Below are positions 4,203-27,825 of a stretch of DNA of 64,000 nucleotides, one piece after another (within the stretch, counting starts at the first letter, position 1; each line of letters opens with the position of its first letter). Position numbers and translations under genes: made by a program. Below the pieces are notes generated by a model. That model ran no database searches, was not told the origin of the DNA, and was given only the letters and a program-made list of their open reading frames with translations. This DNA is from an uncultured Acidobacteriota bacterium (GTDB taxonomy: Bacteria; Acidobacteriota; Thermoanaerobaculia; Multivoradales; JAHEKO01), in assembly GCA_963713825.1 (NCBI GenBank), contig CAVQNG010000003.1:928001-992000 (forward strand), given 5' to 3'.

Positions 4203-4360
4203 ATCGAGCAGATCCGTCGGGCGCTCGAGCCGAGCGACCGACGGAGGTTTCTTCGCTGGTGTTCATCGAGACGGAGGCGTTAACAGCCAGGAGAACATCG
4301 ACGGGATTGAACTGCGGGGAACCGGGTCCATCGGATCGAGGACTAGAAAGGAGCGTCGCA

Positions 4361-5731: not shown

Positions 5732-7590
5732 CCTCCCGGAAAGCGACCAAGGATCGCCGGGCGATCCCGGCATGCCTCGTGTTTGCGGTCCTCCTCTCGA
5801 CCCCAGGCATCGGGCGTGCGGGGCAGTTCTCCCTCTTCAAAGGCAAGGTTCTCGGCGTCACGAAGACCACCATCACCATCGGCGCGGCGTGGCGGAGTGC
5901 GAACCCCCACGCGCAGCTCGTCGGCGCCGGCGCCGGTCAGGGCGAGGACCCGGAGCTCCCGGGCGCCTCTGGCGCGGTCGGGGTCAACGACGACGGCAAC
6001 CTGAATTTCGGCAAAAACGACCTCGTGAGCAATCCCATGACCCTGGTCTCGGAGATGACGTTCCGCCACAGCTCCGGCCAGGGCGTTTTCCTTCGTCTGC
6101 GCGCCTGGAACGACATCATGCTGGAAAGCAGAACGATGCCCCACGGCAGCGGTCCCACCCGGTACGTTCAAAACGTGCAGCTCGATGACACGAACTACCT
6201 CAGCGCGGCACAATTCCACGGGATCGATATCTACGATGCGTTCTTCTTCGGGCACTACAAGCTCGGCCAGACGTACCTCGATCTGCGTCTCGGACGACAG
6301 GCGCTCCAGTGGGGCGAGTCCATCCTGTACACGGGGCTCAACGCGCTCAATCCCTACGACGTTGCCTGGCTATCGATTACCGGCGCTCCGGTCCTCAACG
6401 GCGGCCGCCTTCCGGTCAACCGCGTCTACCTCAACCTCGCGACACCGAGCGGATGGACCATCGACGGCTTTTTCAACTTCGAGTTCCGAAGCACCGTCCT
6501 GCCCGGCTGCGGAACCTACTTCAGCACCCTCGACAACGGGATGCACCCGGGATGCAACGTGGCCACCGCCCTGGGAGTGCCGGACGCCACGGCAAACATC
6601 ATCCGCACCCGGAACTTCTACAACGGCAGGCTCTACGCGGGCGGCGTCTTTCCGGAGGGCGGCCCCGATGCCATGGACGCCTCGACGGCGCCGTCCCGAT
6701 GGAGCGGATACGGGATCTCGGCGCACAGATTCGTCGAGTCGCTCGACACAAACTTCGGTTTCTACTATGCCAGTTATACGAACCCCACGCCCGTCGCCGC
6801 CCCGGTCGTCGGCACAAACCCGCTCGACTTTGCCATGAACACCATGTTCGTCGAAGAGGACGTCAAGGTCCTCGGGGTGAGCGCCGCGACCGGAGTGCGG
6901 AACCTGGCGCTGTTCGGGCAGCTCACTTACTCCATGGACCTGCCCTCCCAGAGGAACGCGCCGGCGTTCATCGAGGGCTCGCTTTCGGGCACGGGGCCGT
7001 ACGGGTGGATGCAGGAGTACGTCAACAAGGAGGCTCCGGGCTACTACCCGCTCGACGTGGCACAGCTACAGCTCGGCGGGACCTGGCAGTTCGGCGAATT
7101 CCTCCACCTCTCGGACGCGAAGCTCACCTTCGAGACCAACATGCAGTACGCGACCAACCACCCCGGGCTAGAGGGGCCGAACGCCGAGCGGCTCGGGCGC
7201 TACGGCAACTTCGGCGCCGCTGACTGGGACCAACAGGGGTACGTCTGCGATCCCGGGCCCCTCGACAACGGAGTCGTCAACAGGTGCGAGGTCGACGGGT
7301 TTGTGACGGATTTCTCAGTGGGATACAAGCTCCGGGCGCAGACTACCATTCCGAAGGTCGGCCCGGGCCTGACCGTTATCCCGGTGCTCGTCTTCAACCA
7401 CGACCTCTACGGCTTTTCGCCCGACGGCGCGATCCTCGAGGGACGGCTCTCGCTCTCGGCCTTCCTGAGGGTGCTTCTGCGTCAGAAGTACTACGTCGAA
7501 ACGGGCCTCGTCCTGTTCGACCGGGGCGCGGACTGGGATCCCATGGCGGACCGCGGGCAGTACTCTTTGGTATTTGGAATCAACCTGTAG
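5728..7590 (+). CDS. DUF1302 outer membrane protein
   Basis: NDDGNLNF, LRLGRQALQWGES, LPGCGTYFS, DPMADRG near C-terminus; overlaps DUF1329 stop. Confidence 0.85.
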   Translation: MTSRKATKDRRAIPACLVFAVLLSTPGIGRAGQFSLFKGKVLGVTKTTITIGAAWRSANPHAQLVGAGAGQGEDPELPGASGAVGVNDDGNLNFGKNDLVSNPMTLVSEMTFRHSSGQGVFLRLRAWNDIMLESRTMPHGSGPTRYVQNVQLDDTNYLSAAQFHGIDIYDAFFFGHYKLGQTYLDLRLGRQALQWGESILYTGLNALNPYDVAWLSITGAPVLNGGRLPVNRVYLNLATPSGWTIDGFFNFEFRSTVLPGCGTYFSTLDNGMHPGCNVATALGVPDATANIIRTRNFYNGRLYAGGVFPEGGPDAMDASTAPSRWSGYGISAHRFVESLDTNFGFYYASYTNPTPVAAPVVGTNPLDFAMNTMFVEEDVKVLGVSAATGVRNLALFGQLTYSMDLPSQRNAPAFIEGSLSGTGPYGWMQEYVNKEAPGYYPLDVAQLQLGGTWQFGEFLHLSDAKLTFETNMQYATNHPGLEGPNAERLGRYGNFGAADWDQQGYVCDPGPLDNGVVNRCEVDGFVTDFSVGYKLRAQTTIPKVGPGLTVIPVLVFNHDLYGFSPDGAILEGRLSLSAFLRVLLRQKYYVETGLVLFDRGADWDPMADRGQYSLVFGINL

Positions 7591-7699
7591 TGGCGACGTG
7601 CGCTGGAGATAGACCAGTTGCGCCGCGGTGTCGAATCGATTCGCTTTACCACAACCAGCGGCGGCTGAACCGCCGAAACCGAAGAAGGAGAGGACAGAG

Positions 7700-9106
7700 A
7701 TGAAAAAGTTTCAAAGACTCGTGCTGGCCGCCATCGCAGTGGCCATCCTGGCGACTGGAACCGGCGTCGGGGCTGCGGATCTGTCGCCCGAGGAGGCAAA
7801 GATCATGGCCGTCGAGGCGTACATCTACACCTACCCGCTGGTCACCATGGACGTGACGCGCCGGGTGATGAGCAACGTGCCGGTCGGGGTGAAGACGGGC
7901 GCCGGTCCCATGGGCATGTTCCACCACTTCCGGACGTATCCGACGGCCGACTTCCGGGACGTGGTCCGGCCGAACTTCGACACGCTGTACTCGGTGGCCT
8001 GGCTCGACCTGACCAGCGAGCCGATGGTCGTCTCCGTACCGGACTCGGGCGGCCGCTACTACCTGCTGCCGCTGTACGACATGTGGACCGACGCCTACGC
8101 CGTGCCGGGAAAGCGCACGAGCGGCACCGCGGCCCACGACTACGCGGTCACGCCGAAGGGCTGGAAGGGGAAGCTGCCGGCGGGCCTGGAGCAGATCGAG
8201 TCGCCGACGGCCTACAACTGGATCATCGGCCGCACCCAGACGAACGGCCCGGCGGACTACGCTGCGGTCAACACGTTCCAGGACGGCTTTAAGGTGACGC
8301 CGCTCTCGCAGTGGGGCAAGCCAGTGGTCGCGCCGGCCGCCTTTACCCCGGACCCGACGGTGGACATGAAGACAAACCCGCTCAACCAGGTCAACGCCAT
8401 GACCGGTGACAAGTACTTCGCCTATGCCGCGGAGCTGATGAAGCTGCACAAGCCCCACCTCACCGACTGGTCGGTGGTGGCCCGCATGACGCGGCTGGGA
8501 ATCGTCGCGGGCCAGAGCCTCGACATCGCCAAGGCCGGCCCGGTGGTCCGCCAGGCCCTCCTCGACGCGCCGGCCACCGCACTGAAGCTGATGCAGACTT
8601 ATGCACCGAACATGGGCAAGACCGTCAACGGCTGGCAGATGTACACCGACACGATGGGTGTCTACGGCGACTTCTACTTCAAGCGCGCCGTCATCTCGAT
8701 GATCGGCCTGGGCGCCAACCAGGTCGCCGACGCGATCTACCCCCTCGCCGCGGCCGACGCCGACGGCAAGCCCCTAGACGGCAACAACGACTACGTCATC
8801 CACTTCTCGAAGGAGGAGCTGCCTCCGGTGGACGCGTTCTGGTCGATCACGATGTACGACGCCGAGGGCTTCCAGGTCGCCAACCCGCTCAACCGCTTCG
8901 CCATCGGCGACCGCGACGCCCTGAAGTACAACGAGGACGGCTCGCTCAGCATCTACATGCAGAACGCCTCGCCGGGCGCCGACAAGGAGTCGAACTGGCT
9001 GCCGGCGCCAAAGGGTGCTCTGGGCATCACGATGCGGCTCTACGCTCCCAAGATCGACGTGGCGGCCGGTCGCTGGGTGCCGCCGCCGATCACGCGGGTG
9101 GATTGA
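7700..9106 (+). CDS. DUF1254/DUF1214 domain exported protein
   Basis: EAYIYTYPLVTM, VVRPNFDTLYSVAWLDL, PPVDAFWSITMYD, NWLPAP..MRLYAP. Confidence 0.93.
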   Translation: MKKFQRLVLAAIAVAILATGTGVGAADLSPEEAKIMAVEAYIYTYPLVTMDVTRRVMSNVPVGVKTGAGPMGMFHHFRTYPTADFRDVVRPNFDTLYSVAWLDLTSEPMVVSVPDSGGRYYLLPLYDMWTDAYAVPGKRTSGTAAHDYAVTPKGWKGKLPAGLEQIESPTAYNWIIGRTQTNGPADYAAVNTFQDGFKVTPLSQWGKPVVAPAAFTPDPTVDMKTNPLNQVNAMTGDKYFAYAAELMKLHKPHLTDWSVVARMTRLGIVAGQSLDIAKAGPVVRQALLDAPATALKLMQTYAPNMGKTVNGWQMYTDTMGVYGDFYFKRAVISMIGLGANQVADAIYPLAAADADGKPLDGNNDYVIHFSKEELPPVDAFWSITMYDAEGFQVANPLNRFAIGDRDALKYNEDGSLSIYMQNASPGADKESNWLPAPKGALGITMRLYAPKIDVAAGRWVPPPITRVD

Positions 9107-9821: not shown

Positions 9822-10196
9822 ATGGGAGACCAGATTCCAGCTTGTGTACTCCTCGAGACCCTGTTCGGAACGGTGGTCATGGTAGCCGATGCGCACTCGA
9901 TGCAGGAGAGCGCACGCCGACTCCAACCCGAGGTGGCGGTGGTCGACCTCTCGCTCACGCGCGAGTCGAACCTCGACTGGCTGATGGAGCTCCACCGTTC
10001 CTGCCCCGAGATCAAGCTGGTCGTGCTCAGCGTCCACGACGAGTCGGCGGTGCAAGCGGCGGCCAAAGCAGCTGGCGCGGATGGTCATGTGCTCAAACGC
10101 GACATTGCCACGGATCTGCTGCCCACCATCGACTCTCTCCTGGCCGGCGATGCCGTGGACAGGTCGCGGACCAATCTACGTCAAAGCTATCGATGA
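9822..10196 (+). pseudogene. REC-only protein copy 2 with 15-aa in-frame deletion of the ADRH..GLL segment
   Basis: MGDQIPACVLL joined directly to ETLFGTVV; the rest is near-identical to copy 1. Confidence 0.7.
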
Positions 10197-10250
10197 ACAA
10201 CGACAACCAACGTGGCAACGAACTTTCTACCGACAACAAGGAGAAGGAAC

Positions 10251-10917
10251 ATGAAAAGGACAATCTCAACCGGCTTCATCTTCGTCCTGCTGATGGCAGC
10301 GGGAAGCGTGCTGTCAGCGGCGGAGTCCCGCTGGATTGTACGTGGCAACTACGTGGTAGACGTGGCCCAGCACGGATTCCTACCAGACCGAGAGTGTAAT
10401 TGGAGGCATGCCCATCCTCAACGAGCTCAGCCTCGACAAGGGGCAGGGATTCGGGCTCGATATCGAGTACATGTTCAGTAGCAGGATCGGAATCCTCGTG
10501 TCCGCTATCTTCACCGACATGGAGGGCACGTTTGTCTATGGCATCGAGCCCGGAGAAGAGAGCGAGCGCGTCAAAGACAACAACACCGTCGACTTCTACA
10601 CGATCAACGCAGGTGCGAACTATCACTTCACTCCGGAGAGCACGGTCGACTTCTATGTCGGTGCTTTCGCGGGTGTCTTCTCCTATGACAGCGTGAAGTT
10701 TGTGCTGCCGGAGCTCGAGCAGGAGATCTCGATCAACTTCGACGATCAGTTCTCCTACGGTGTGACCGCGGGGCTCGACATCCCGTTCGGCGATAGCCCC
10801 TGGATGGCAACGCTGGGCGTCAGGTACCTGATCAGCGATCTGAAGGAAGACGGTGGACCGCGCGAGATCGCCATCGACCCGATCATCGGCACGATCGGCA
10901 TTGGTCTTCGCTTCTAG
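10251..10917 (+). CDS. OmpW-family protein, copy 2 (1-nt insertion near 10358, possibly a sequencing error)
   Basis: Near-identical to 2189-2820; GTGGTAGACGTGG vs GTGGTAACGTGG; different last strand IIGTIGIGLRF. Confidence 0.8.
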
Positions 10918-10943
10918 AACCAGACAAACTGGAGGACTCAGCA

Positions 10944-11733
10944 ATGAAACGGCTTTCTATCCCAGTTGCGATGCTCTGGCTCGCCTCGCTTGCTGTTGCA
11001 GAGCAGGCGCAGGCAAGCGAGTGGAACTGGAGCATCACCCCTTATTTGTGGGGCTCAGGCGTGAGTCTGAGTGCAGAAGTCAATGATCGAGAACCGGGGA
11101 TCGGACAAGAAATCGATTTCTCGGATCTGATGGACAAGCTCAAATCGCACTCGCTGGTCGGTTCGAGGGCCAGCGCGGCAAGTTCGGGCTTTTTTGCGGA
11201 CGTCTTCCTTGTCGACTTTGGCGACGACAACAAGACGTTCGACCTCGGTGGTTCGCTTCCTGGCCAGGTGGTGGCCGAAACCAATTTGGCGTTCACCATC
11301 TTCGAGGTCGGAGGTATCTACAATCCGAAGGGGGACGGCAAGGGGGTAGCGTTACTCTATGGTGCGCGCATGCTGGACCTCGATATGAAGCTCGATGCGC
11401 AATACGACTTCGACGGGGGATCGACAGAGGGCCGCGACTACGGATTGAACAAAGCGCTTTGGGACGCCCTCATCGGGGTGCGCTACCTCGGCGATCTCGG
11501 GGATCGTTGGCGCTACAACCTCGAGGCAGATGTGAGCAGCGGCGGAACGGACCTGACTTGGAACGCTCAGGCCGGTGTGGGCTACGCCTACGGCAAGCAC
11601 AGACAGCATGCGGTCATCGCCGGCTATCGGTATATGGACATCGACATTGAGCGAGTCACCCGGTGAGCGGGTCGACATCGACATCGAGGCACAGTTGGCA
11701 GGCCCCTACTTGGCTCTGAAGTTCGGCTTCTGA
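10944..11733 (+). CDS. Outer membrane beta-barrel protein (frameshifts near 11145, 11190, 11650)
   Basis: Signal peptide; WNWSITPYLW, WDALIGVRY, DLTWNAQAGVGY, AGYRYMDID; alternative frame ends AGPYLALKFGF* at 11733. Confidence 0.75.
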
Positions 11734-11771: not shown

Positions 11772-12371
11772 ATGAGAAGGCGCATTGCTGCCAGTCTGCT
11801 GGCCACTCTCGTTTGCACGCTCACGGTATCGGTGGCTTTGGGTCAGACGCAGGGTGCCCAGAAGGAGCCAGAGATTCCCGCGGCAAAGCAGACCAGCCTG
11901 GGGTTGTACCTGACGGCAAGCCAAGCCCTTGAAAGGTGGCAAGCCGAGCCCGAGAAGGTGAAGGTCCTCGACGTTCGCACGCTCGAGGAGTTCATCTTCG
12001 TCGGTCATGCGGAGATGGCATGGAATGTTCCCCTCGCCGTCCAGACGGATCAATGGGATGCCGAGAAGCGCCACTTCGCCATGCAGCCAGATCCCACCTT
12101 CGCATCCCGGGTGAAGGAGTTGTTCACCCCCGAGGATACGTTGCTGGTGATGTGCCGCTCCGGGGGCCGCAGCGCGATGGCGGTCAATCTGCTTGCCGAA
12201 GCCGGCTTCAAGAATGTCTACAACATCATCGACGGCATGGAAGGAGACAAGGTGGACGAGGAGGGCAATGTCTTCCACGGGAAGAGAATGAAGAACGGCT
12301 GGAAGAACTCGGGATTGCCCTGGACCTACCAGCTGGATCCGGACCGGATGCGTCTTCCCGATCGCCAATAG
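11772..12371 (+). CDS. Exported rhodanese-like sulfurtransferase
   Basis: Signal peptide ..VALG; LDVRTLEEFIFVGH; active loop CRSGGRS; DGMEGD..GWKNSGLPW. Confidence 0.9.
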   Translation: MRRRIAASLLATLVCTLTVSVALGQTQGAQKEPEIPAAKQTSLGLYLTASQALERWQAEPEKVKVLDVRTLEEFIFVGHAEMAWNVPLAVQTDQWDAEKRHFAMQPDPTFASRVKELFTPEDTLLVMCRSGGRSAMAVNLLAEAGFKNVYNIIDGMEGDKVDEEGNVFHGKRMKNGWKNSGLPWTYQLDPDRMRLPDRQ

Positions 12372-12446
12372 CCAGCTGTAGATCGAAGTACCAAGGTGGA
12401 ACCAACTGAATCGGACATCCAAGACAGGAACACTGGAGGAATCAGA

Positions 12447-13886
12447 ATGACAGCCAGAAAGAAGACCACCGCAAAGAAGACTCCCGCAACCACAGCGAGA
12501 AAGAAGGCCGCGCCGAAATCAAAGAGACGCGTCGCCGCCAGTGCCAAAGTCGAGAACTCGCAGGTCATCGGGTTGCTGGGTAAGGTCCTGGGCGCTGCAG
12601 AGGGGGTCGAGATCGAGCAGCTCCAGGGCCTTGTGGACTCCCTCAAGGAGGCCCAGGGTCAGCAGCCGGTCACCAAGAAGGCAAGCGCGCCAAAAAAGAC
12701 CGCCGCCAAGCCGGCGAAGAAGGCGGCCAAGAAAAGAGTATCCACGAAGGTGCCACTGAACTGGAAAGAGGTGTGGTACACGAACTGCCCGATGGTCTCC
12801 GCCAATAACGTTGACCAGGAGCTGGGATGGTGCCGCGAGGAGTTCAAGAAAATCGGTGTCGAGTACGATTACTTCCGCCACTCACCCGAGAACAACTGGT
12901 ACCCCCACTACATCCACAACCTCGACAACCTCATCCGATTCGGCGGTCTGAATCCCGCGATCGCGGTTCACGCCGACCTTCGCCGCACCGTGCTGTTGGG
13001 GGCGACGTGGGTCTACGAGGGTGGGGTTATGCAGGTGCGCTCCCGCGACAAGATCTTCCGGGTGAAGGATCTAAAGGGCAAGAAGATCGGCATCACCAAG
13101 AGCCTGAACACCATCAAGAATGACTGGTGGCGCATCCAGGAACACATGGGCATCGAGAACATCCTGATGCTCAACGACATGACCATGGATGACATCGAGC
13201 TCGTCGAGTTCCCCTATCCCGACGACTGGTATGACAAGCCGGAGATGCTGACCCCGCCGATGAACAACCCGTCCGAGTTGTGGATGAGGCGTGACCATAA
13301 GCATGATTACGCATTCCGCCCGCTGGAGAAGGCATTACTCGACGGTACCGTCGATGCTATCTACAACCAGATGGGACAATTGGGACAGCTCTCGGAGGCC
13401 ACGGGCGAAATCAAAGCCATATTCGACCTGTCCAAGCTCCCGGACTGGACGATTCAGGTCGCCAACACTCCCGCGGTCATCACCTGCACCGACGTGATGG
13501 CCGAGAAGCACCCCGAGTTGGTTGTCGCCTACATGAAGGCCATGATCAAGGTCGGGCGCTGGGCCAATGAGCACAAGCGCGCTGCGGCGGTGATCCTCGA
13601 CCATCAGACCTTTTACCTGGACGCCGAGCACACCTACCAGGGCATCAAGCACGTCGACATGGTGCCGAGCCTGAGTGCGCAGAACCTGGAGTGCATCAAC
13701 ATCGGCAAAGATTTTATGTTCAGTCACGGCTACACGAAGAACGACTTCGATGTGAACGAGTGGGCGGCCCCGGAGTTCCTCGAGCAGGCGGCGACTGAAT
13801 TGCTCATGGAGGAATGGGAAAAAAGGAGCTGGAGCAAGCTTCCGGAGGGCGGCGGGCTCGAGGTCGAAGGTACACGCCTCGGCTAG
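12447..13886 (+). CDS. DszB-like desulfinase homologue (SsuA/THI5 binding-protein fold) with Lys/Ala-rich N-terminal extension
   Basis: YTNCP and H-x9-RFGG match recalled DszB YSNCP and H60..R70FGG; DLKGKKIGI; no signal peptide; RBS GGAGG. Confidence 0.7.
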   Translation: MTARKKTTAKKTPATTARKKAAPKSKRRVAASAKVENSQVIGLLGKVLGAAEGVEIEQLQGLVDSLKEAQGQQPVTKKASAPKKTAAKPAKKAAKKRVSTKVPLNWKEVWYTNCPMVSANNVDQELGWCREEFKKIGVEYDYFRHSPENNWYPHYIHNLDNLIRFGGLNPAIAVHADLRRTVLLGATWVYEGGVMQVRSRDKIFRVKDLKGKKIGITKSLNTIKNDWWRIQEHMGIENILMLNDMTMDDIELVEFPYPDDWYDKPEMLTPPMNNPSELWMRRDHKHDYAFRPLEKALLDGTVDAIYNQMGQLGQLSEATGEIKAIFDLSKLPDWTIQVANTPAVITCTDVMAEKHPELVVAYMKAMIKVGRWANEHKRAAAVILDHQTFYLDAEHTYQGIKHVDMVPSLSAQNLECINIGKDFMFSHGYTKNDFDVNEWAAPEFLEQAATELLMEEWEKRSWSKLPEGGGLEVEGTRLG

Positions 13887-13927
13887 CCGGCAGGAGGCGG
13901 CTCAGCAAAGGGTTCGAAGCGGATGTC

Positions 13928-13953
13928 CCCGGCGTGCCGTACGGCGCGCCGGG
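13928..13953. other. GC-rich intergenic hairpin
   Basis: CCCGGCGTGCC-GTAC-GGCGCGCCGGG; no U-tract. Confidence 0.5.
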
Positions 13954-13994
13954 AGATGCCCGCGGGCAACCGAGTGCGGGCCAGGGAGGAAAGC

Positions 13995-14831
13995 ATGAGC
14001 GTCACCTACAAACTCGACACCATGATCGAGGCCGACGAGAGCCTGTGCATTGGATGTGGGAGCTGCATCCGCGCCTGTCCGGGTGGTCTCATCACCAAGC
14101 AGGATTTCCCTGTTCCCGTCGAGAACGGGTGGGACCTTTGCATCGACTGCGGCCATTGCGTGGCGATCTGTCCTACCGAGGCCATGCACCAGCGCTCGAT
14201 GGGCCCCGAGGATTGCCAGCCGATCGACATCCACCTCATCCCCAGGTGGGATCGGGTCAGGCAGTACCTGATCTCGCGGCGTTCGATTCGGGGCTACATC
14301 AGCAGGCCCATCGAAAAGGACAAGATCCTCGAGCTGTTGGAGGTCGCCCGTTACGCTCCCAACGGAGCGAATCGCCAGGTGGTGCGCTGGCTGGTGATCA
14401 ACGACCCGGCGAGAGTCCACCGGATTGCCGAGATGACGATCGACTGGATGAAGCTCATGAAGGAGACGAACCGCGCGCTCTACGAGGAGGCCAAGCTCGA
14501 GTTGTTTATCGAGCCGTGGCAGCTGGGTCAGGATCGTATCTCCAGGGGGGCGCCTTGCGTCATGGTGGCCTATGCACCGAAGGACGAGCGGACCGCGCCG
14601 CCCGCCGCAATGATAGCGATCCACCAGATCCAGCTCGCGGCACCCGCTCTCGGCCTGGGGACGACTTTCTCCGGCAGCATCAACACCGCCGGTCAGTCCT
14701 ACGATCCCTTGATCGAGGTCTTCGGGCTGCCGGAGGGACATATCCCGCATGGGACGTTCTTGATCGGACACCCGGCCGAGAAGTACCAACGGATTCCAGT
14801 GAGAAGGCCTGTCGACGTGACCTGGCTTTGA
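13995..14831 (+). CDS. Nitroreductase-family protein with N-terminal 2x[4Fe-4S] ferredoxin domain
   Basis: CIGCGSCIRACP, CIDCGHCVAICP; SRRSIRGY; RYAPNGANRQ; ALGLGTT. Confidence 0.92.
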   Translation: MSVTYKLDTMIEADESLCIGCGSCIRACPGGLITKQDFPVPVENGWDLCIDCGHCVAICPTEAMHQRSMGPEDCQPIDIHLIPRWDRVRQYLISRRSIRGYISRPIEKDKILELLEVARYAPNGANRQVVRWLVINDPARVHRIAEMTIDWMKLMKETNRALYEEAKLELFIEPWQLGQDRISRGAPCVMVAYAPKDERTAPPAAMIAIHQIQLAAPALGLGTTFSGSINTAGQSYDPLIEVFGLPEGHIPHGTFLIGHPAEKYQRIPVRRPVDVTWL

Positions 14832-14847
14832 GAAATCGGAGGAATCG

Positions 14848-15708
14848 ATGAACGAAGGCAAACCACAGACACGCATGCAGCGGATCGGCTACCGGCAGCC
14901 GACCGATGCTGCGGAGCCGGAACATCCCGTCCTCGTCGAGTACGTCAGCGACGGGCGCGTGGCGGTCGTCACCCTCAATCGGCCGCACGCCGACAACGCG
15001 ATCACGACGGAGCTGGCGGCACACCTCATCGAAGCGCTCGAGACGATTGCGGCCCGTGTCGAAGTCCGCGTCGCCATCCTTCGAGGAGCCGGCGAGCGCG
15101 CCTTCTCGGTCGGTGGCGACCTCTACGAGCGCAAGAACATGACGAAAGAGCAATGGCTTCGTCAACGCCAGGTCTTTGATCGCCTCCTCTACACGCTGCG
15201 CCAATTGCGCAGGCCGATCATCGCCGCGGTCCACGGGATGGCCTACGGTGGCGGCTGCGAGATGGCCATGAGTACGGACTTCATCATCGCCGCCGAGGAC
15301 GCCGTCTTCGGTCAGCCCGAAGCGATGGTCGGCTTGAGCGCCGGCGGCGGCTCGCCGGTCTTCCTGCCGCGGGTGCTGCCCCCTGGCAGGGCCATGCAGA
15401 TGCTGATGACCGGAGAACCTATCACCGCCAAAGAGGCCCACCGGCTTGGCATGGTCAACGAGTTACACCCCAAGGCCGAGCTCATGGATGCGGTGCTCGG
15501 CATCGCGGAAAAGATCGTGGCGAATTCGCCGACGGCGGTCCAGGCGGTCAAGCACGCCGTTCAAATGGGGCAGGGCGAGCCCGTCGAGCAGGCAGTCGCC
15601 ATCATGATGGATGAGCACTGGCGCTCGGTCGTTCATCCCGACCGCGTCGAGGGAATCCTCGCCTTCAACGAAAACCGGGAGCCGGAGTATGTCGATCCGG
15701 ACTTCTGA
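14848..15708 (+). CDS. Enoyl-CoA hydratase/isomerase (crotonase) family protein
   Basis: VTLNRP..NA, AFSVGGDL, GGGCEMA, FGQPEAMVG. Confidence 0.92.
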   Translation: MNEGKPQTRMQRIGYRQPTDAAEPEHPVLVEYVSDGRVAVVTLNRPHADNAITTELAAHLIEALETIAARVEVRVAILRGAGERAFSVGGDLYERKNMTKEQWLRQRQVFDRLLYTLRQLRRPIIAAVHGMAYGGGCEMAMSTDFIIAAEDAVFGQPEAMVGLSAGGGSPVFLPRVLPPGRAMQMLMTGEPITAKEAHRLGMVNELHPKAELMDAVLGIAEKIVANSPTAVQAVKHAVQMGQGEPVEQAVAIMMDEHWRSVVHPDRVEGILAFNENREPEYVDPDF

Positions 15709-15804
15709 TGTGCGCTCTCTACAGGCTTCACGAACTGTCCAAAGATCGTCCCTCGGCGCGCTGAGGGATTGGGACCCAACCCGAGGACAAAGGAAGATAC
15801 GAAC

Positions 15805-17499
15805 ATGAAAGTCATCATCGTTGGCGGAGTGGCCGGCGGGGCGTCGTGTGCGGCGCGTCTGCGCAGGCTGGACGAAAAAGCGGAAATCCTCATGGTGGAA
15901 CGCGGACCGTACGTCAGTTACGCAAACTGCGGACTCCCGTACCACATCTCGGGAGTGATCCCACAGGAGTCGAGTCTTCTCGTCGCCAACGAGCAGGTGT
16001 TTCGCGCCCTCTACGGCATCGATGTGCGGACCAGCTGTGAGGCGGTCGCCATCGACCCGAAGAAGAAGACCGTCGATTTGAAGAACGTCGAGACCGGCGA
16101 GGTGACGACCGAAAGCTACGACAAACTGGTGCTGTCGCCCGGTGCCGCCTCGGTCCATCCGCCCCTGCCCGGTATCGACCTGCCCGGGATCTTCCACGTG
16201 CGGACCGTGCCCGACGCGCGAACCATCAAAGAGTGGGTCGCGGGAGGCACCGACTTCCTGGCGGGGATGTCCAAGTACGCGGGGATTCAGTACGTCAAAC
16301 CGACGACGCGCGCCGTCGTCATCGGCGGCGGTTTCATCGGTCTCGAGACGGCGGAGAACCTGGTGCACCTGGGGTTCGACGTGACCCTTCTCCAGAAGCT
16401 GCCTCAGTTGCTGGGTCCGCTGGACCACGAAGTCGCGCGCCTCGTCGAGGAACACGTGAAGAGGCACGGCGTCAACGTCGTCCTCAACGACGCCGCGGCG
16501 GGGTTTGCTGAGCTGGAGGGCGGTGCGATCGAGGTGCAGACTGCTTCCGGCAAGACCTACCCTGCCGACATCGTGATTCTCGCGATCGGCGTGCGGCCGG
16601 ACACCACGCTGGCGAAGGCGGCCGGGCTGGATATCGGCGACCGCGGTGGGATCCGCGTCGACGATCACATGCGGACCTCCGACCCGGACATCTTCGCGGT
16701 CGGCGACGCCATCGAGGTCAAGGACGTCGTCACCGAGGAGTGGAGTCTGATGGCGCTGGCCGGGCCGGCGAACCGGCAGGGCCGGATTGCAGCCGACGTC
16801 ATCGCCGGGCGAGACTCCCGCTTCCGCGGCACCCAGGGCACTGCGATCATCGGACTCTTTGGCGGCGCCGCCGCCTGGACGGGAATCAACGAAAGGACGC
16901 TCGAGAGGCTCGGCGAAGACGACTACGAGAAGGTCTTCATCTTCCCGAACTCCCACGCCGGCTACTTTCCCGGCGCCAAGATGATCGGCATGAAGATCCT
17001 CTTCCGCAAATCCGACGGCCGTCTCCTCGGAGCGCAGGCGCTCGGCCATGATGGACCGGCGGTGGACAAGCGGATCAGCGCGCTGGCCGTGGCCCTGCAG
17101 ATGGGCGCGACGATCTACGATCTCGAGGAGGCCGAGCTCTGCTACGCGCCCCAGTTCGGCAGCGCCAAGGACCCAGTCAACTACGCTGGGATGGTCGCCG
17201 CCGACGTCCTTCGCGGCGACATGCCTATCGCGCACTGGGACGGCATCGGCGACGCCTTCCTGCTCGACGTCCGCCAGCCTGTGGAACTGGTCGTCGAGTC
17301 GGTTCCCGGCGCGGTCAACATTCCGTTGCCGGAGCTCCGCGCGCGCCTGGATGAGCTGCCGAAGGACCGCGAGATCCTGATCATCTGCCGCTCTGCGCAG
17401 CGTGCCTACTACGCGACGCGGATCCTGCTACAGAACGGTTTCAATGCTCGGAACCTCTCCGGCGGCATGCTGGCGCGGGCGATGCAGACAAGGGTCTGA
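15805..17499 (+). CDS. CoA-disulfide/persulfide reductase with C-terminal rhodanese domain (CoADR-RHD/Npsr type)
   Basis: GGVAGGASCAARLRR, SYANCGLPY, GGGFIGLE, AVGD, YAPQFGSAKDPVN, rhodanese loop ICRSAQRA. Confidence 0.92.
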   Translation: MKVIIVGGVAGGASCAARLRRLDEKAEILMVERGPYVSYANCGLPYHISGVIPQESSLLVANEQVFRALYGIDVRTSCEAVAIDPKKKTVDLKNVETGEVTTESYDKLVLSPGAASVHPPLPGIDLPGIFHVRTVPDARTIKEWVAGGTDFLAGMSKYAGIQYVKPTTRAVVIGGGFIGLETAENLVHLGFDVTLLQKLPQLLGPLDHEVARLVEEHVKRHGVNVVLNDAAAGFAELEGGAIEVQTASGKTYPADIVILAIGVRPDTTLAKAAGLDIGDRGGIRVDDHMRTSDPDIFAVGDAIEVKDVVTEEWSLMALAGPANRQGRIAADVIAGRDSRFRGTQGTAIIGLFGGAAAWTGINERTLERLGEDDYEKVFIFPNSHAGYFPGAKMIGMKILFRKSDGRLLGAQALGHDGPAVDKRISALAVALQMGATIYDLEEAELCYAPQFGSAKDPVNYAGMVAADVLRGDMPIAHWDGIGDAFLLDVRQPVELVVESVPGAVNIPLPELRARLDELPKDREILIICRSAQRAYYATRILLQNGFNARNLSGGMLARAMQTRV

Positions 17500-17563
17500 G
17501 CTGATGAAGCGCGACGAACCCACTGCGGGACTGCGTAAGGTCTTACATCGACAGGGGGCATGA

Positions 17564-18040
17564 ATGGACACCATGCCGGAGCTGTTTTCTCGTGGGGTCG
17601 AGGAGCTCCTCGGGCGTGCGGGTGGACCGCTTCGCTTTCGACTGGTGGTCATGCCAACCGTGGTCGTCATCCTCGCGATCCGAGCCCACCTGAAGGATGT
17701 CCGGGAGGGAAAGTCGGTCCGGGTGGGGGCTTTCCTCGCGAGCCCGACCGAGCGCCGACGGCTCCTCCGTTCCGCGCTGCGAGACATCTCGAGAGTCTTC
17801 ATCGTGGCGTGCGTGCTGGACACCACCTATCAGCTCCTGGTTCTACGAGCGTTCCACCCTGGCCAGATGCTGATCGTGGCCGTGGTATGCGCCATCGTGC
17901 CGTATGTCCTGATCCGCGGCCCGGTCACGCGTCTCGTTTACTTCCTGCAACGGCGTTGGGACAGCGCTGCCGAACCAACGACGGCCACCACGAATCCGGA
18001 CGCCGAAAGCCACGGGAAACAGGAGTCAGCCGATGAGTGA
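17564..18040 (+). CDS. Hypothetical membrane protein
   Basis: GPLRFRLVVMPTVVVILAIRA..PYVLIRGPVTRL; about three TM segments; overlaps SulP start. Confidence 0.75.
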   Translation: MDTMPELFSRGVEELLGRAGGPLRFRLVVMPTVVVILAIRAHLKDVREGKSVRVGAFLASPTERRRLLRSALRDISRVFIVACVLDTTYQLLVLRAFHPGQMLIVAVVCAIVPYVLIRGPVTRLVYFLQRRWDSAAEPTTATTNPDAESHGKQESADE

Positions 18041-19797
18041 AGAGAGATCCGGCGTTCTCGCCAAGATCAGCTGGCCCCGTCCGTTCGCGGGACTGCAAGG
18101 CGTCAAGGTGGCCGACGTCCCACGGGAGATCTCGGCGGGCATTACCCTGGCCGCCCTGATGATCCCGCTGAACATCGGCTATGCGCAGGTGGCCGGTCTG
18201 CCCCCCGTTGCGGGTCTCTACGCGGCCATCATCCCGCTGGCGGTCTTCGCCTTGCTCACGAGCTCGCGCCACCTGGTGACGAGCCCCGATGCCTCCATGG
18301 CCGGGCTGGTCGGCGCCGCCCTGGTCGCTTTTGCCGCACCCGGGGACCCGCTGCGTCTACAGTTCGCCCTCGCTCTGGCTGTGATTTGCGGCTTGGTGTT
18401 CTTCGTCTTCTGGTTCTTCCGGCTGGCATTCCTCGCCAACTTCCTGTCTCGCGCCGTGATGGCGGGCTTTATCACCGGCCTCGGCATCGAGGTCTTCACC
18501 AACCAGGTGCGGAAGATCCTCGCCGCGCCCCACGTGGAAAGCGCGGCCGGGGCGCTGGCAGCGGCGGAACGGCTCAAGGATGCCATGGCGAGCTCTGTCG
18601 AGACCGAAGGCTACTTCGTGGAGTTGGTGGCCCTGTTCGAATCCATCCCCAGGGCCAATCTGTACTCGGTGGCGATCGGAGTCTCCGCTTTCTTGATCGT
18701 CCGTCTAATGAAACGGTACACGCCGAAGATCCCTGGAGCATTGGTGGCCCTGGTGCTGCTGACGGTCATCGTCGCGGTGTTCGATCTCGCTGCCAAAGGA
18801 GTCGGCGTGCTCGGTGAGATGCCTTCGGGCCCACCGGCGTTGACCGTGCCCGCCATCCCCTTGGCCGACTACCTGCGGCTGCTGCCAAGCGCCCTGGCGA
18901 TCGTGGCCATTCTTCTCTGCGAAGGTCTCCTCGTGGTCCGCAGCTACAGCAGCAAGTACGGATACAAGGCGGACGGCGATCAGATGCTGTTCGCCTGGGG
19001 TGCGGCCAACCTCGCGGCCGGCTTCACCGGCTCGATGATCACCGGCAACAGCCCCTCCCGCTCGGCGGCGATGGATGGCGCGGGCTCGCGCAGCCAGATG
19101 TCGAGCCTGGTGGCGGCGGGAACGATCACGCTGGTGATGCTCTTCTTTACCGACATGCTCGCTTTCCTGCCCAACGCGGCCCTGGCCGGGATCGTGGCCA
19201 ATGCGGTGCTGTCGCTGATCGAGGTCCATGAGCTCCGCGAGCTGTGGCGGATGCGCCGCTCGGACTTTTGGATCGCCGCCACCTGTCTTCTCAGTGTGCT
19301 GGCCCTGGGTCCGCTGCGCGCCGTCCTCATTGCCTTCCTCCTGTCCACCATCGACGTCATCCGGCGGGCGTCCAGTCCGGACACATCGGCGCTGCTGGAA
19401 GCTCCCGACGGTAGCTATTTCACTCCCGCGGTCGACAGCGACGGCATCAGTACGCAGGGTCTGGTCATCTATCGATTTCGGGGCCCCGCTGTACTTCGCC
19501 AACGCGACCCTGTTCCTCGAAGAGGTCGAGCAGTTGGTCGCCCAGGCGCCCAGCCCTGTCCGCTGGTTCGTGCTGGACGCGGAAGCGATGATCGACATCG
19601 ACACCACCGGCGCGGAGGTCCTGCGGCAAGCGATCACCATCTTGGCCGATCGCGACGTCACCTTCGCCGTCAGCCGCGCCGACCGGTCCTTCCGCTCATG
19701 GCTGGAGAAATACGAGCTGATGGAGCTGATCGACTCGAGCCGTTTCTACCCGACCAACCGACACGCGGCGGCAGCATTTCGCGAGGATCCGGAGTGA
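18033..19797 (+). CDS. SulP/SLC26 anion transporter with STAS domain (frameshift near 19476)
   Basis: AGITLAALMIPLNIGYAQVAGLPPVAGLYA; FLSRAVMAGF; second frame GAPLYFANA..LDAEAMIDIDTTG. Confidence 0.9.
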
Positions 19798-22124: not shown

Positions 22125-22562
22125 ATGCCCAATGAACATCCGAGTTGCGTTTTGCTTGCGGACCGCCACCACGGCCTCACGGAAGGCGTCCGCGGGCTGC
22201 TCGAGACGGAGTTCGAAACGGTAGTCATGGTTGCCGACGAGGCATCGCTGCTCGAGGGAGCGGTCCGACTCCATCCCGAACTGGCGGTCGTGGATTTCTC
22301 CCTCGCTGCGGACAAGGGCCTCGGCTGGTTGCGACTGTTGCGTGAGCGCTGTCCCGACCTCAAGGTGGTCGTTCTCAGCGTCCACGACGAGTCAACGGCA
22401 CGGGAGGGTGCGCGGGCGGCTGGTGCGGCTGGTTTTGTGCTCAAGCGCGATATCGCAACAGACCTGCTGCCAACAATAGACACGCTTCTAGCCGGCGATT
22501 CTCTGGAGGAACCCGGAGGCAAGACACCGAGAGGGCCGGCAAGCAAGAGAGGCACTGCATGA
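22125..22562 (+). CDS. REC-only protein, copy 3 (divergent paralog)
   Basis: CVLLADRH..AVVDFSL..VLSVHDE..GFVLKRDIATDLLPTIDTLLAG. Confidence 0.87.
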   Translation: MPNEHPSCVLLADRHHGLTEGVRGLLETEFETVVMVADEASLLEGAVRLHPELAVVDFSLAADKGLGWLRLLRERCPDLKVVVLSVHDESTAREGARAAGAAGFVLKRDIATDLLPTIDTLLAGDSLEEPGGKTPRGPASKRGTA

Positions 22563-24187
22563 GAACGAAAATGGCTCGAATATCGCTTCGACAAACGGCG
22601 CTTTGGTCTGTCGCGTCTGCGCTCGCATTGCTAGCCATTCCCGTGAAGGCGAGCACCGCGCAGGAGCAACTGACGGTAACCGTCAGCTGCGCCTCGACGC
22701 CTGGAGAGCGGCAGCACTGCGCAGCCGATACCTCGGCGGGCATACTCCTGGCGCGATCGACAGGGCCGGCGGAGTGCTTGTTGGGACGAACCTGGGGTTA
22801 CGACGCTGCTGGGGTCTGGGTGATGGACGGCTGCAGCGGCGAGTTTCTGGTGGCCGGGGCGGCCGTGTCCGGACCTGCTGCGGCGCCGGTCACAGAGCCA
22901 CAGGAGGCCGCGGCGGCGCCCTCCGCCGAGTCAGCTGAAGGCCAGGCTGTGCTGGCCGCGGAGGCTGAAGACTCCAAGGAACCGTATCCATATACCCCAC
23001 TCTATGGAGTCCTAGATCCAGGCCGTGGTTTTCTTGTCGGACGGAGCAAACTCGGGGAGCTTTCCCTCAGCGCCTACGCGATCGTGCGGTACATGAACCA
23101 GATGCCCGACGGCCAGACCTTTACCGACCACCTTGGCAACGAGAATCCCGTCGATGCCAGGCGGGATATCTACTCCCACCGGATCCTCGTTTGGCTGAAC
23201 GGCTGGATGGCAACTCCAAAATTGCGGTACACGATCGCCTGGTGGACCGTCAACACGACCGATCAGGACGCCCTGTTCGGCAACATCGGTTACCAGTTCC
23301 ACAAGAGCTTCAACCTCTACGCCGGCATCTTCGGCAATCCCGGTTCGCGGACGATGTTCGGCTCCTTCCCCTACTGGCTCGGCACCGACCGCGTGATGGC
23401 GGACGAGTTCTTCCGGCCGTTTTTTTCCCAGGGTCTGTGGGCGAACGGTGAGGTTCTGCCCGGTCTCTGGTATAGCGCTTCGATGGGAAACACCTCGAGC
23501 ACTCTGGGCGTCACCGCCAGCCAGATTGACCGGAACTTCACCTACGGCGGGTCGGTCTGGTGGATGCCGACGACCCACGAGTTCGGCCCCAGAGGCGGGT
23601 TCGGCGACTGGGAATACCACGAAAAGCTGGCGACCCGATTCGGCGCCTCTGCAGTTTATAGCCCCGAGGAGCGCTACACGCCGATCGGCACCGCGCCGGG
23701 AAACACCGCTCTGAAGCTGGCAGACAGCCTGAACCTGTTCGCTGAGGGGTCCCTGGCGCCGGGAGTCACGGTGACCAACGCGGACTATCACATCCTCGCG
23801 GTCGATGCCGGAATAAGGTATCGCGGGTTCTTCTTTGCGACGGAGTACTACTACCGGACGCTGAACGGGTTCCAGGCGGACGGACCGGTGCCGGTCGATC
23901 AGATCGTGGACACGGGCTTCTACGTGCAGGCCGCGTTCTTCCCCATTCGGCAGACGCTCGAGCTCTACACCGCGACCTCGCAGATCTTCGGCGACATTGA
24001 CGCCGGGTTCGACAACAGCTCCGAGTACCTGGTCGGTGGGAACTGGTACCCCTTCAACACGCGTAACCACAGGCTCAACCTGCAGGTCATCGACGTCAAT
24101 AGATCTCCGGTCTCGAGTACCTTCGGTTACTACACCGGGGGCCAGGACGGCACCACCGTGTCGGCGGCGTTCTCGATCTTTTTCTAG
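22559..24187 (+). CDS. DUF3011-like Cys-rich N-domain fused to outer membrane porin-like barrel
   Basis: VSCAS..RQHC..C..GRTWGYD..VWVMDGCSGEF; C-terminal amphipathic strands ending FSIFF. Confidence 0.75.
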   Translation: MRTKMARISLRQTALWSVASALALLAIPVKASTAQEQLTVTVSCASTPGERQHCAADTSAGILLARSTGPAECLLGRTWGYDAAGVWVMDGCSGEFLVAGAAVSGPAAAPVTEPQEAAAAPSAESAEGQAVLAAEAEDSKEPYPYTPLYGVLDPGRGFLVGRSKLGELSLSAYAIVRYMNQMPDGQTFTDHLGNENPVDARRDIYSHRILVWLNGWMATPKLRYTIAWWTVNTTDQDALFGNIGYQFHKSFNLYAGIFGNPGSRTMFGSFPYWLGTDRVMADEFFRPFFSQGLWANGEVLPGLWYSASMGNTSSTLGVTASQIDRNFTYGGSVWWMPTTHEFGPRGGFGDWEYHEKLATRFGASAVYSPEERYTPIGTAPGNTALKLADSLNLFAEGSLAPGVTVTNADYHILAVDAGIRYRGFFFATEYYYRTLNGFQADGPVPVDQIVDTGFYVQAAFFPIRQTLELYTATSQIFGDIDAGFDNSSEYLVGGNWYPFNTRNHRLNLQVIDVNRSPVSSTFGYYTGGQDGTTVSAAFSIFF

Positions 24188-24254
24188 ACGACCCGTATTG
24201 GAAAGCGATTGTCATTCGCACAGGTAACCCATCGGACGACTGGAGGACAGACAG

Positions 24255-25427
24255 ATGCACTTCTACTTGTTCCACGAACGCTTCTCTTTCCGGCTTCTGG
24301 GCTCTGCTCTCGGCCTCTGCTTGATCTTGGCGGTCGCAGTCGCCATCTCGAGCCCGTCTGCCGAGGCCCAGGTACCGGCGAACGCCGACTTCCACGATTC
24401 GCACTTCCACATCACGAACTACGTTCAGGAGGGCACGGACATCCACGACCTCGTGGAGATGATGGGCAGCACGATCGGCCGTTCCACCGTCTTCGGCCTG
24501 CCGCTGCAGCAGATGTGGTCGTACCGCAACACCGGCGAGTTCGCCCCGACCTACTACCTCCAATCGGATGCGCCGCTCTACTACTACTCGTTCACCGACG
24601 CCCACATCGCCATGGCGTACAAATCTCTGACCCCGGAGCAGCAGACGCGGTTCGACCCGATGATTACCGGCTTCAACCCCGCCGACATGTACGCCGCGGA
24701 CCACATCCGGCGCGTACTGCTGACCTTCCCCGGGGTGTTTTCGGGGATCGGCGAGTTCACCATCCACAAGGAGTTCGTCTCGGCCAAGGTTGCGGGCGAA
24801 GTCGCCAGCCTCACCGACCCGGCGCTCGACCGGATCTTTGACTTTGCCGCCAAGACAGGGCTGGTCGTGATCCTCCACAACGACATCAACATGCCGTTCC
24901 CGAAGCCGGACCAGGAGCCGTACATCCTCGCCCAGCTGAAGGCGCTGTTCATGCGCCACCCGGGCACCACGATCATCTGGGCCCACCTCGGCGTCGGCCG
25001 GGTCGTTCGGCCCCTCGAGCAGCAGGCCGCGATCGTCGAGAAGATCTGCACCGACCCCGCCCTCGCGCACGTGTACCTGGACATCTCGTGGGATGAGGTC
25101 GCTAAGTACGTGACATCAACGCCGGAGGCGACGCGGCGAACCGCCGACATGATCAACCGCTACCCCGACCGCTTCCTCTTCGGCTCCGATGTGGTGGCGC
25201 CGACCTCGGTGGACGCCCAGGTCGCGGTCTACGACGCGTACGAGCCGCTCTGGGCTCTGCTGACACCGGAGGCGAGCTTCAAGGTGCGCAAGGGCAATTA
25301 CGAAACGCTCTTCGACTCGGCCCGGGTCAAGGTGCGGGCGTGGGAGCGGGCGCATGCGAACGACCCCCACGTCGTGCCGCCGTGGACGCCGGCGTCCGGA
25401 ACCGGGAACGAGTACGGCCGGCAATGA
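24255..25427 (+). CDS. Exported amidohydrolase-superfamily (metal-dependent TIM barrel) protein
   Basis: Signal ..SAEA; DSHFH, GIGEFTIHKE, ILHND, WAHLG, DISWDEV, RFLFGSD. Confidence 0.88.
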   Translation: MHFYLFHERFSFRLLGSALGLCLILAVAVAISSPSAEAQVPANADFHDSHFHITNYVQEGTDIHDLVEMMGSTIGRSTVFGLPLQQMWSYRNTGEFAPTYYLQSDAPLYYYSFTDAHIAMAYKSLTPEQQTRFDPMITGFNPADMYAADHIRRVLLTFPGVFSGIGEFTIHKEFVSAKVAGEVASLTDPALDRIFDFAAKTGLVVILHNDINMPFPKPDQEPYILAQLKALFMRHPGTTIIWAHLGVGRVVRPLEQQAAIVEKICTDPALAHVYLDISWDEVAKYVTSTPEATRRTADMINRYPDRFLFGSDVVAPTSVDAQVAVYDAYEPLWALLTPEASFKVRKGNYETLFDSARVKVRAWERAHANDPHVVPPWTPASGTGNEYGRQ

Positions 25428-25492
25428 CAGGCGATTGCGGTACAAGGTCGATTGCCGATATTGAATGGAAACCATAAAGAAAGGTAAGTGTC

Positions 25493-26733
25493 ATGGATGA
25501 GATCACACAGAGATTGGGGCCAGCAGCAAGGTGCCTCGCCTTAGCGGCCATGGTCCTGGCCGTGGCAATGCCGCTGGCCGCCCAGGAAGTTGATGATGAC
25601 GAGGAAGAGCCACGGTTCAAGATCTATGGCCACGTGATGACCGACATCGGCTACGACACCGGACAGGTCGACCCCGACTGGTACGACGTCATGCGGCCGA
25701 CGAAGCTGCCTGCCTACGAGAACGAGTTCGGCGAGGACGGCAACGCCTACTTCAGCGTCCGACAGACGCGGTTCGGCGTCCAGTCGTGGTTGCCGACCAA
25801 GATGGGTGAGGCGTGGGGCATCTTCGAGTTCGAAATGTTCGGAACCGGCGACGATGCCGGGCAGACCACTTTTCGGCTGCGACACGCCTATCTCGAGCTC
25901 GGCCAGTTCGGCGCCGGCCAGTACTGGAGCCCGTTCATGGACATCGACGTCTTCCCCAACTCGCTGGAGTACTGGGGACCGAGCGGCATGGTGTTCTTTC
26001 GCAACATCCAGGTGCGCTGGATGCCGATCAAGGGTGATACCCGATTGACCATCGCCCTCAGCGGCCGGGCGCCAGCAGCGACCAGGGTAACTACGAAGGT
26101 CAGATCGCGCTCGAAGAGGTGACGCCCCGATTCAACTTGCCGGACCTGTCGGCCGAGTACCGGCTGGGCCGCGACTGGGGCTACGTCGAGCTTGCCGGCA
26201 TGCTGCGGCGTATCGAATGGGACGACAACGGTCAGGACGAATACGATCTCTCGGGCGCTGCGACCGGCTGGGGCTTGAACCTGAGCTCCAACATCAAGGC
26301 GGGTGACAACAACACGATAAGGCTGCAGGTCGTTTATGGCGAGGGGATCGAGAACTACATGAACGACGCCACGGCAGACATCGGCATCGAGCCCAACCCG
26401 GGCAACCCGACGGCGCCGGTCAAGGGGGTACCTCTGCCGATCCTCGGTACCGTAGCGTTCCTCGACCACACCTGGAACGACAAGTGGACAACGGCTGTCG
26501 GGTTCTCGACCGTCGACATCGACAACACCAGCGAGCAGTCGGTTGACGCCTTCAAGAGCGGCCGCTACGCGCTGATCAACGCGCTCTACACCCCGGTTGA
26601 GAACATGATGTGTGGTGCCGAGGTGCAGTACGGATACCGCGAGAACTTCGCCGACGGGTGGACCGTCGACGACGTCAAGATCCAGTTCTCATTCAAATAC
26701 AGTTTTTCTCACCTATTTGGAGGTAGCTCATGA
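25493..26733 (+). CDS. DcaP-family outer membrane porin (frameshift near 26060)
   Basis: FSVRQTRFG, FRLRHAYLELG, GQYWSPFMD..FPNSLEYWGP; second frame PDLSAEYR..QFSFKYSF. Confidence 0.85.
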
Positions 26734-27764: not shown

Positions 27765-27825
27765 CCAGATGCAGCACCGAAGCAGATCGAACCCACGACG
27801 GTGAATCAAACGGAAGGGAATGAAA

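Follow-up and report, generated by a model that had tools for sequence, protein, structure and literature searches.

DszB, the 2'-hydroxybiphenyl-2-sulfinate desulfinase of the 4S dibenzothiophene pathway (dszABC; PDB 2DE2/2DE3/2DE4), is the described enzyme most similar to a protein encoded at 12447-13886 of the DNA analyzed here, a 64,000-nucleotide stretch of contig CAVQNG010000003.1 from an uncultured Acidobacteriota bacterium, referred to below as the window. The active site of DszB comprises C27, H60, R70, G73 and S25, with a pocket lined by F61, W155 and F203 (PMC6100217, PMC12168087). A computational study has the proton of the Cys taking the place of SO2 on carbon, and its density functional theory (DFT) calculations disfavor Cys attack on the sulfinate sulfur (PMC6100217). 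The protein belongs to the same superfamily as the SsuA/TauA/NMT1-THI5 family (PF09084, TIGR01728) of ATP-binding cassette (ABC) transporter subunits, the origin of the label "ABC substrate-binding protein" that its homologues carry in databases; ESM Atlas likewise gave only binding-protein labels, and one UniRef entry already bears the automatic name "desulfinase". Cofactor-free enzymes also occur in this fold, among them 9JP7 (4,5-dihydroxyphthalate decarboxylase) and DnpB (288 amino acids, known here by description only), whose homologues are reported to be mis-annotated as transporter subunits (bioRxiv 10.1101/749879).

The DszB-like gene belongs to a real, conserved and uncharacterized module, and the oxygen-free sulfur-removal pathway to which it points may be new. 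We tentatively read its product as a cofactor-free desulfinase of the DszB type that would release sulfite, coupled to sulfane-sulfur transfer by a rhodanese and to reduction by a persulfide reductase. No publication on this clade or gene set was found in the full-text literature, a scope outside which lie supplements and most subscription papers. According to a 2026 preprint on nitrogenase-like enzymes, which mentions neither DszB nor rhodanese, most described organosulfur-assimilation enzymes need oxygen and the anoxic ones are poorly known (bioRxiv 10.64898/2026.08.20.746119).

The DszB-like protein and its active site

A phmmer search of the PDB with the 479-residue product of 12447-13886 returned DszB as the sole match (E 1.3e-9), and a 108-row profile matched DszB at E 2e-41 as against E 2e-9 for the best SsuA. 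The AlphaFold2 model of residues 97-479 had a predicted local distance difference test score (pLDDT) of 91. Foldseek and VIA placed substrate-bound DszB (2DE3) first, with Z 31.4 and a root-mean-square deviation of 2.7 A over 318 residues, followed by SsuA (Z 25.2) and, further down, 9JP7 (Z 14.4). A superposition on DszB had been proposed in a sequence-only reading of this DNA, and at the level of the fold the result agrees with it.

The same reading had matched the motifs YTNCP and H-x9-RFGG to C27, H60 and R70 of DszB. These motifs begin at residues 111 and 154, and the alignment pairs C27 with C114, H60 with H154, R70 with R164, G73 with G167 and W155 with W228; S25 and F61 are replaced conservatively by T112 and Y155. 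At Y63 the protein differs from DszB in having His. Judged from this alignment, the DszB catalytic tetrad is kept in register. His154, Arg164, Tyr155 and Trp228 are each found in 120/120 of the best homologues, Gly167 in 119/120 and Cys114 in 114/120 (five of the others are truncated and one has Leu). To our knowledge, an invariant Cys with the partner residues of DszB is not a feature of binding proteins.

The protein lacks a signal peptide. Its residues 1-96 form a Lys/Ala-rich extension with one central amphipathic segment (window 12447-12734), found in a minority of homologues; most start directly at the core. The full 479-residue protein folded without an alignment gave a pLDDT of 36. At the other end, a C-terminal tail of about 25 residues ending in RLG (13812-13886), which DszB lacks, shows strong conservation across phyla despite its poor order in the model. 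Variants of the gene were also seen: one homologue (L168:4565-5728) has TNCA in place of TNCP and lies beside reductase-like genes, and loci L095, L100, L134 and L072 contain DszB-like paralogues in tandem, two or three per locus, a possible sign of several substrates or of a heteromer. A predicted complex of the DszB-like protein with the rhodanese scored 0.23 against a mark of 0.32 and was used neither for nor against an interaction.

The family was found at 531 places among 185,579 species genomes. Locus counts given below refer to the best 80 of the 531 (82-94% identity) and to genes within up to 8 kb of the DszB-like gene; 20/80 loci have less than 5 kb on one side. These loci are not independent, since many come, by their titles, from one series of metagenome-assembled genomes (MAGs). 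Neither an SsuC-type permease (searched with one permease bait) nor SsuA was detected in any of the 80 loci. An ABC ATPase occurs in 5/80, never both co-oriented and adjacent; the ATPase of locus L067 is adjacent but divergent. Members of the SsuA/TauA family carry a signal peptide or lipoprotein anchor and have a cognate adjacent permease and ATPase, neither of which is seen here: most homologues are leaderless and without a permease, they bear the catalytic Cys, His and Arg, and the protein scores 52 bits against a TIGR01728 cut-off of 163.5. Like DszB, it is encoded by a stand-alone gene. Because the fold and catalytic tetrad match DszB and the 80 loci lack an SsuC-type permease, it is supported that the product is an enzyme rather than an ABC subunit, as the sequence-only reading had also judged from the missing signal peptide and the lack of a permease or ATPase nearby. 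Two observations count against this. Twin-arginine (Tat-like) leaders are present in 9 homologues (8/148 stored proteins and 1/76 locus ORFs [open reading frames]), and one copy, on a Rhizobium plasmid, comes two genes after an ABC operon for amino acids with a binding protein of its own. The Tat-leader forms also suggest that the DszB-like step needs no cytoplasmic cofactor or coenzyme A (CoA) ester.

The gene run and its conservation

The seven co-oriented ORFs that had been described for this locus are all present on the + strand, with intergenic gaps of -8 to 111 nt and accompanied by purine-rich, ribosome-binding-like stretches. They are given here with two active-site features and the genes just upstream.

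10251-11733, + strand: two outer-membrane barrel genes, upstream of and outside the conserved module, each with a one-base frameshift in the window
11772-12371, + strand: rhodanese, single-domain (PF00581), CRSGGR active loop, N-terminal signal peptide in this genome; core partner
12447-13886, + strand: DszB-like protein, periplasmic-binding-protein fold, 479 amino acids, of which 97-479 are the conserved core; weak NMT1-like family match (phmmer, profile, AlphaFold2, Foldseek, VIA)
12786-12788, + strand: codon of Cys114 (C27 of DszB, by alignment)
12906-12947, + strand: His154...Arg164-Phe-Gly-Gly167 (H60, R70 and G73 of DszB, by alignment and conservation)
13998-14831, + strand: 2x[4Fe-4S] ferredoxin fused to a nitroreductase-fold flavoprotein (PF00881 and Fer4), both cluster motifs intact
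14848-15708, + strand: crotonase (PF00378), both catalytic Glu motifs (GGGCE, QPE) and a conserved WLRQR segment
15805-17499, + strand: CoA-disulfide reductase-rhodanese fusion (Npsr-type persulfide reductase), SYANCG and CRSAQR intact
17564-18040, + strand: membrane protein, 158 amino acids, accessory, without Pfam or NCBIfam match
18033-19797, + strand: SulP-STAS anion transporter (PF00916 and PF01740), split in the window by an extra base at 19479

The extra bases in SulP (19479) and in the two barrels (10358 and 11644-11646) are missing from contigs of two independent short-read DNA runs (X1, X12 for SulP); the frameshifts are therefore most likely assembly errors, and we treat the genes as intact. 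Contigs of RNA runs X15 and X17 covered 26/30 and 18/30 bins of the locus, which is not a measure of transcription or its level. No Rfam family or sigma-70-like promoter was found at the locus, and terminators appeared only at chance level.

The profile of the rhodanese family has as its best PDB match 8W14 (Ab-RLD), reported as a shown thiosulfate sulfurtransferase (bioRxiv 2024.02.19.581022). The CoA-disulfide reductase-rhodanese retains the FAD and NADH motifs, the active-site Cys and the C-terminal rhodanese Cys that define Npsr, enzymes reported to reduce persulfides with bound CoA as a sulfur shuttle (PMC7969121); it falls below the TIGR03385 cut-off (414 against 579). Both proteins keep the domain order and catalytic Cys motifs of their described relatives, and differ from them in forming distinct subfamilies tied to the DszB-like gene. 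The crotonase scores below every NCBIfam cut-off shown, and ESM Atlas gave only hypothetical clusters for the 158-residue membrane protein.

Orthologues of the rhodanese were detected in 55 of the 80 loci, of the CoA-disulfide reductase-rhodanese in 30, of the ferredoxin-nitroreductase in 22, of the crotonase in 19 and of the SulP transporter in 12; one or the other of the two sulfane-sulfur enzymes is present in 67/80. A SulP of any kind occurs in 33/80 and a BASS carrier in 32/80. The nitroreductase fusion often follows the DszB-like gene directly. In a reciprocal test on 80 metagenome crotonase loci, the DszB-like gene was found in 46/80 and the ferredoxin-nitroreductase in 54/80, and among the 37 crotonase loci with at least 1.3 kb upstream, 29 had the DszB-like gene beside the crotonase. 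We also searched 301 genomes of the class Anaerolineae, one of them chosen as a known carrier. The numbers are small: 3 encode the DszB-like enzyme, the rhodanese subfamily occurs in 2 (both times beside the enzyme), the nitroreductase in 1, and the CoA-disulfide reductase-rhodanese subfamily in the same 3 and in 1 of the 298 others. These counts support a gene set that is conserved and specifically coupled.

The seven genes are not conserved as an exact run, and the presence of the barrels is incidental. The barrels and exported rhodanese that the sequence-only reading had included in the neighborhood do lie upstream in the window, but the second barrel recurs in 4/80 loci and the upstream OmpW in 0/80, and the signal peptide of the rhodanese is lineage-dependent and absent from most homologues; both were rejected as defining features of the module. 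The 158-residue membrane protein is found in 5/80 loci. Near-singleton fusions of the DszB-like protein with SulP, nitroreductase or rhodanese (P0271, P0272, P0090) have out-of-frame-looking linkers and were rejected as evidence.

The partners of the 4S pathway are missing. Baits for an ABC ATPase, an SsuC-type permease, an LLM monooxygenase and an acyl-CoA dehydrogenase found none in the window, and genes for a DszA-type LLM monooxygenase, a DszC-type enzyme or an acyl-CoA dehydrogenase were detected by baits in 0/80 loci; DszA (TIGR03860) is also absent from this genome. The lack of DszA and DszC partners, noted for the window by the sequence-only reading, is thereby supported. The known CoA-linked desulfination is the AcdA route of Advenella and Variovorax, in which a 3-sulfinopropionyl-CoA desulfinase of the acyl-CoA dehydrogenase fold acts with a CoA ligase or transferase. 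Unlike that route, the present loci have no acyl-CoA dehydrogenase, and an AMP-forming CoA ligase is found in 1/80 (CoA transferases and SucCD-type ligases were not among the baits). The known partners of DnpB and 9JP7 are likewise not in these loci. Distant relatives at 26-27% identity occupy operons with LLM and DszB-like genes, once with a gene of the acyl-CoA dehydrogenase family, which ties the wider family to organosulfur use.

Oxygen-sensitive modules, host and distribution

Glycyl radical and benzoyl-CoA-reductase-type enzymes are oxygen-sensitive, and modules with both architectures accompany the DszB-like gene in relatives, outside the window. A glycyl radical enzyme, an altered PFK homologue and an activase occur in 7/80, 10/80 and 10/80 loci, respectively. 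The glycyl radical enzyme was found in 12/50 carrier genomes and in 0/301 of the class genomes, a sample without a positive control for it. It resembles the eliminases HypD, IslA and HpsG in architecture, with HypD nearest, but scores far below all named cut-offs and has a GACV Cys loop. In the PFK homologue, GGRG replaces GGDG and Glu replaces the Arg of MGR, among other changes; its kinase activity is doubtful because these catalytic motifs are altered. In the loci examined (L018:2378-6095, L169, L174-L176), the glycyl radical enzyme is followed by the PFK homologue and the activase.

A four-gene set like class I benzoyl-CoA reductase/2-hydroxyacyl-CoA dehydratase flanks the DszB-like gene on a plasmid of R. 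leguminosarum, where the DszB-like gene is inserted between reductase-like subunit genes and followed by a BASS carrier, two rhodaneses and SulP; no CoA ligase is annotated in this plasmid stretch. The set is also present in 2/50 carrier genomes, in one case immediately upstream of the DszB-like gene and the crotonase, in the other within a cluster of about 26 kb that holds nearly all of the modules. On a short contig, the first reductase-like subunit follows crotonase, nitroreductase and rhodanese. Module genes are present in all 4 reductase-like loci, 3 of which were reached through carriers. The subunits score far below every named-enzyme cut-off. The sets of the Rhizobium plasmid and of two MAG-associated genomes (L162:7454-12882, L168, L169) are 71-88% identical.

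Neither the radical modules nor DszA or dsrA was found in the present genome, which is 96% complete, and nothing matched above the SfnB cut-off; the DszA family (TIGR03860) occurs in 3/50 carrier genomes. The genome encodes two members of the heme-copper oxidase family, which, with the absence of the radical modules, leaves the host not established as a strict anaerobe. The oxygen independence assigned to the pathway by the sequence-only reading gains from the glycyl radical and benzoyl-CoA-reductase-like partners in relatives and loses by the oxidases of the host.

The DszB-like gene is found in 0/60 relatives of this genome. The best 80 homologues span many phyla, the family is present in salt-marsh and sediment sequencing runs, and cultured carriers include Chelatococcus, Kaistia, Nitrospira NS4 and Rhizobium leguminosarum ATCC 14479. 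Across 79 sequences, mean identity is 87% for the protein but 56-59% at four-fold sites, as against 37% expected by composition, a pattern that fits horizontal spread under strong purifying selection. The proteins form a tight, separate clade on a long stem in a quick tree that does not contain DszB itself and carries long-branch warnings beyond the tight clade.

The surrounding island has features of its own. A block of about 1.07 kb with response-regulator and OmpW genes occurs twice, at 1791-2855 and 9852-10918 (98.6% identity), a diverged third copy lies near 27864-28495, and the blocks, together with further repeats at 3366/28534, suggest a recent rearrangement. An ORF of 1476 amino acids at 29659-34089, without Pfam match, consists of two near-identical halves of about 700 amino acids with Trp/Tyr/Gly-rich tails and is either a tandem duplication or an assembly artefact; its start appears frameshifted. 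Flanking genes at 4082-9106 and 22559-28494 encode DUF1329, DUF1302, DUF1254/1214, an amidohydrolase, a split DcaP porin and a glutaminase, and in Acidobacteriota loci L004, L051 and L057 several of them are again found next to the module.

Possible roles of the module

The analysis shows the fold, the conserved residues, the coupling of the genes and the lack of partners of the ABC or monooxygenase kind; from these we infer the chemical steps and their order. By analogy with DszB, Cys114, tuned by His154, would protonate the sulfinate-bearing carbon, and Arg164 and Gly167 would hold the sulfinate until SO2 or sulfite leaves. The rhodanese could take a sulfur atom from a thiosulfonate (R-SO2-S-), creating the sulfinate without oxygen, or could add a persulfide sulfur to sulfite to give thiosulfate. 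The CoA-disulfide reductase-rhodanese would reduce the persulfide to H2S with NADH, and SulP or BASS carriers would move anions. Crotonase and ferredoxin-nitroreductase may be optional arms, providing the sulfinate or acting on the carbon product, as may the glycyl radical enzyme or the benzoyl-CoA-reductase-like complex in other genomes. With a thiosulfonate as the entry point, each of the three core genes would have an oxygen-independent role. The CoA linkage of the sequence-only reading suits such an accessory arm; for the DszB-like step itself it is weak, given the low counts of crotonase and CoA ligase, the missing acyl-CoA dehydrogenase and the nine Tat-like leaders.

Several findings weigh against a DszB-type desulfinase within a sulfur-transfer module. 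Identity to DszB is only about 22%, and the F203 lid of DszB has no counterpart: the region aligns poorly and holds instead a charged, nearly invariant RDHKHD segment, so that the substrate, and even the leaving group, may differ from those of DszB. To judge from sequence, the substrate would be planar yet more polar than the biphenyl sulfinate. All five window partners are found together in 1/80 loci, four of them in 5/80 and none in 12/80, and no sulfinate-making enzyme is universal across the loci. The rhodanese appears to be exported in this genome and the DszB-like protein does not. MalT-LuxR (34/80 loci), DUF1269 and glucosidases are frequent co-travellers and belong to a wider island. 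The thiosulfonate entry is built on general rhodanese chemistry. Finally, the same fold decarboxylates in 9JP7 and reportedly eliminates nitrite in DnpB (bioRxiv 10.1101/749879).

These points leave room for other readings. Because the tightest partners are both sulfane-sulfur enzymes, the Cys/His/Arg site might act on sulfur-sulfur substrates (thiosulfate, a persulfide, or the S-sulfo or sulfinyl adduct formed by a thiol such as CoA) rather than on a C-S bond, making the module one of inorganic or thiol-sulfur recycling in which CoA would carry the sulfur. CoA is bound by three of the partners, but a CoA ligase is found in only one of the 80 loci; Npsr is reported to use bound CoA as a sulfur shuttle (PMC7969121), and the extreme conservation across phyla would suit one small universal substrate. 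We nevertheless consider this distinctly unlikely, since the aromatic residues of the pocket are retained, a carbon skeleton is implied by the crotonase and the radical partners, and the DFT study disfavors Cys attack on the sulfinate sulfur in DszB (PMC6100217). Another anionic leaving group, either nitrite from a hydride-Meisenheimer adduct (as in DnpB, the ferredoxin-nitroreductase donating the hydride) or CO2 lost by an activated aromatic acid, has its precedents in the fold and in the position of the nitroreductase fusion directly after the gene. It appears quite improbable: the nitroreductase is found in 22/80 loci as against 67/80 for the sulfur enzymes, 9JP7 is far more distant in structure than DszB (Z 14.4 against 31.4), and the C/H/R/G set is that of DszB, DnpB being known only by description.

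A non-catalytic protein that binds or senses a sulfur oxyanion, serving the SulP/BASS carriers or neighboring regulators, would agree with the database label, with SsuA as the next fold match, with the Tat-like leaders and with the plasmid copy near an amino-acid ABC operon. That most homologues are leaderless, that SsuC-type permeases, SsuA and co-oriented adjacent ATPases are lacking from the 80 loci, and that the invariant Cys with DszB's partners is foreign to binding proteins make it very improbable. It is also improbable that the genes form no single pathway and are passengers of a mobile stress/anoxia island, co-occurring because the island travels as a block. The gene's absence from all 60 relatives, the fluid gene order, the frequency of island neighbors such as MalT-LuxR and the duplicated blocks in the window would all fit; however, the partner subfamilies hardly occur in genomes that lack the enzyme (a comparison made without the island genes as controls), and on one plasmid the DszB-like gene sits between reductase-like subunit genes.

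The desulfinase reading can be extended, in a form that we think unlikely though conceivable, to an undescribed anaerobic counterpart of the 4S pathway, of which these genes would form the core and which would be widespread in sediments. Its front ends, oxygen-sensitive and interchangeable, would be either a new class of glycyl radical enzyme paired with a degenerate PFK or a benzoyl-CoA-reductase-like complex driven by ATP, together with crotonase and ferredoxin-flavoprotein. From a sulfone, sulfonate or thiosulfonate they would produce a sulfinate by cleavage or reduction; sulfite would be freed by the DszB-like enzyme, and rhodanese and persulfide reductase would dispose of the sulfur.

The family is mislabelled as a transporter subunit in databases, and a small, cofactor-free protein with a known catalytic site lends itself to direct assay. 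The glycyl radical enzyme with its altered PFK is worth a study of its own. If the desulfinase reading is true, DszB chemistry would gain a natural role outside oil desulfurization, and two unassigned radical enzymes would be opened to study.

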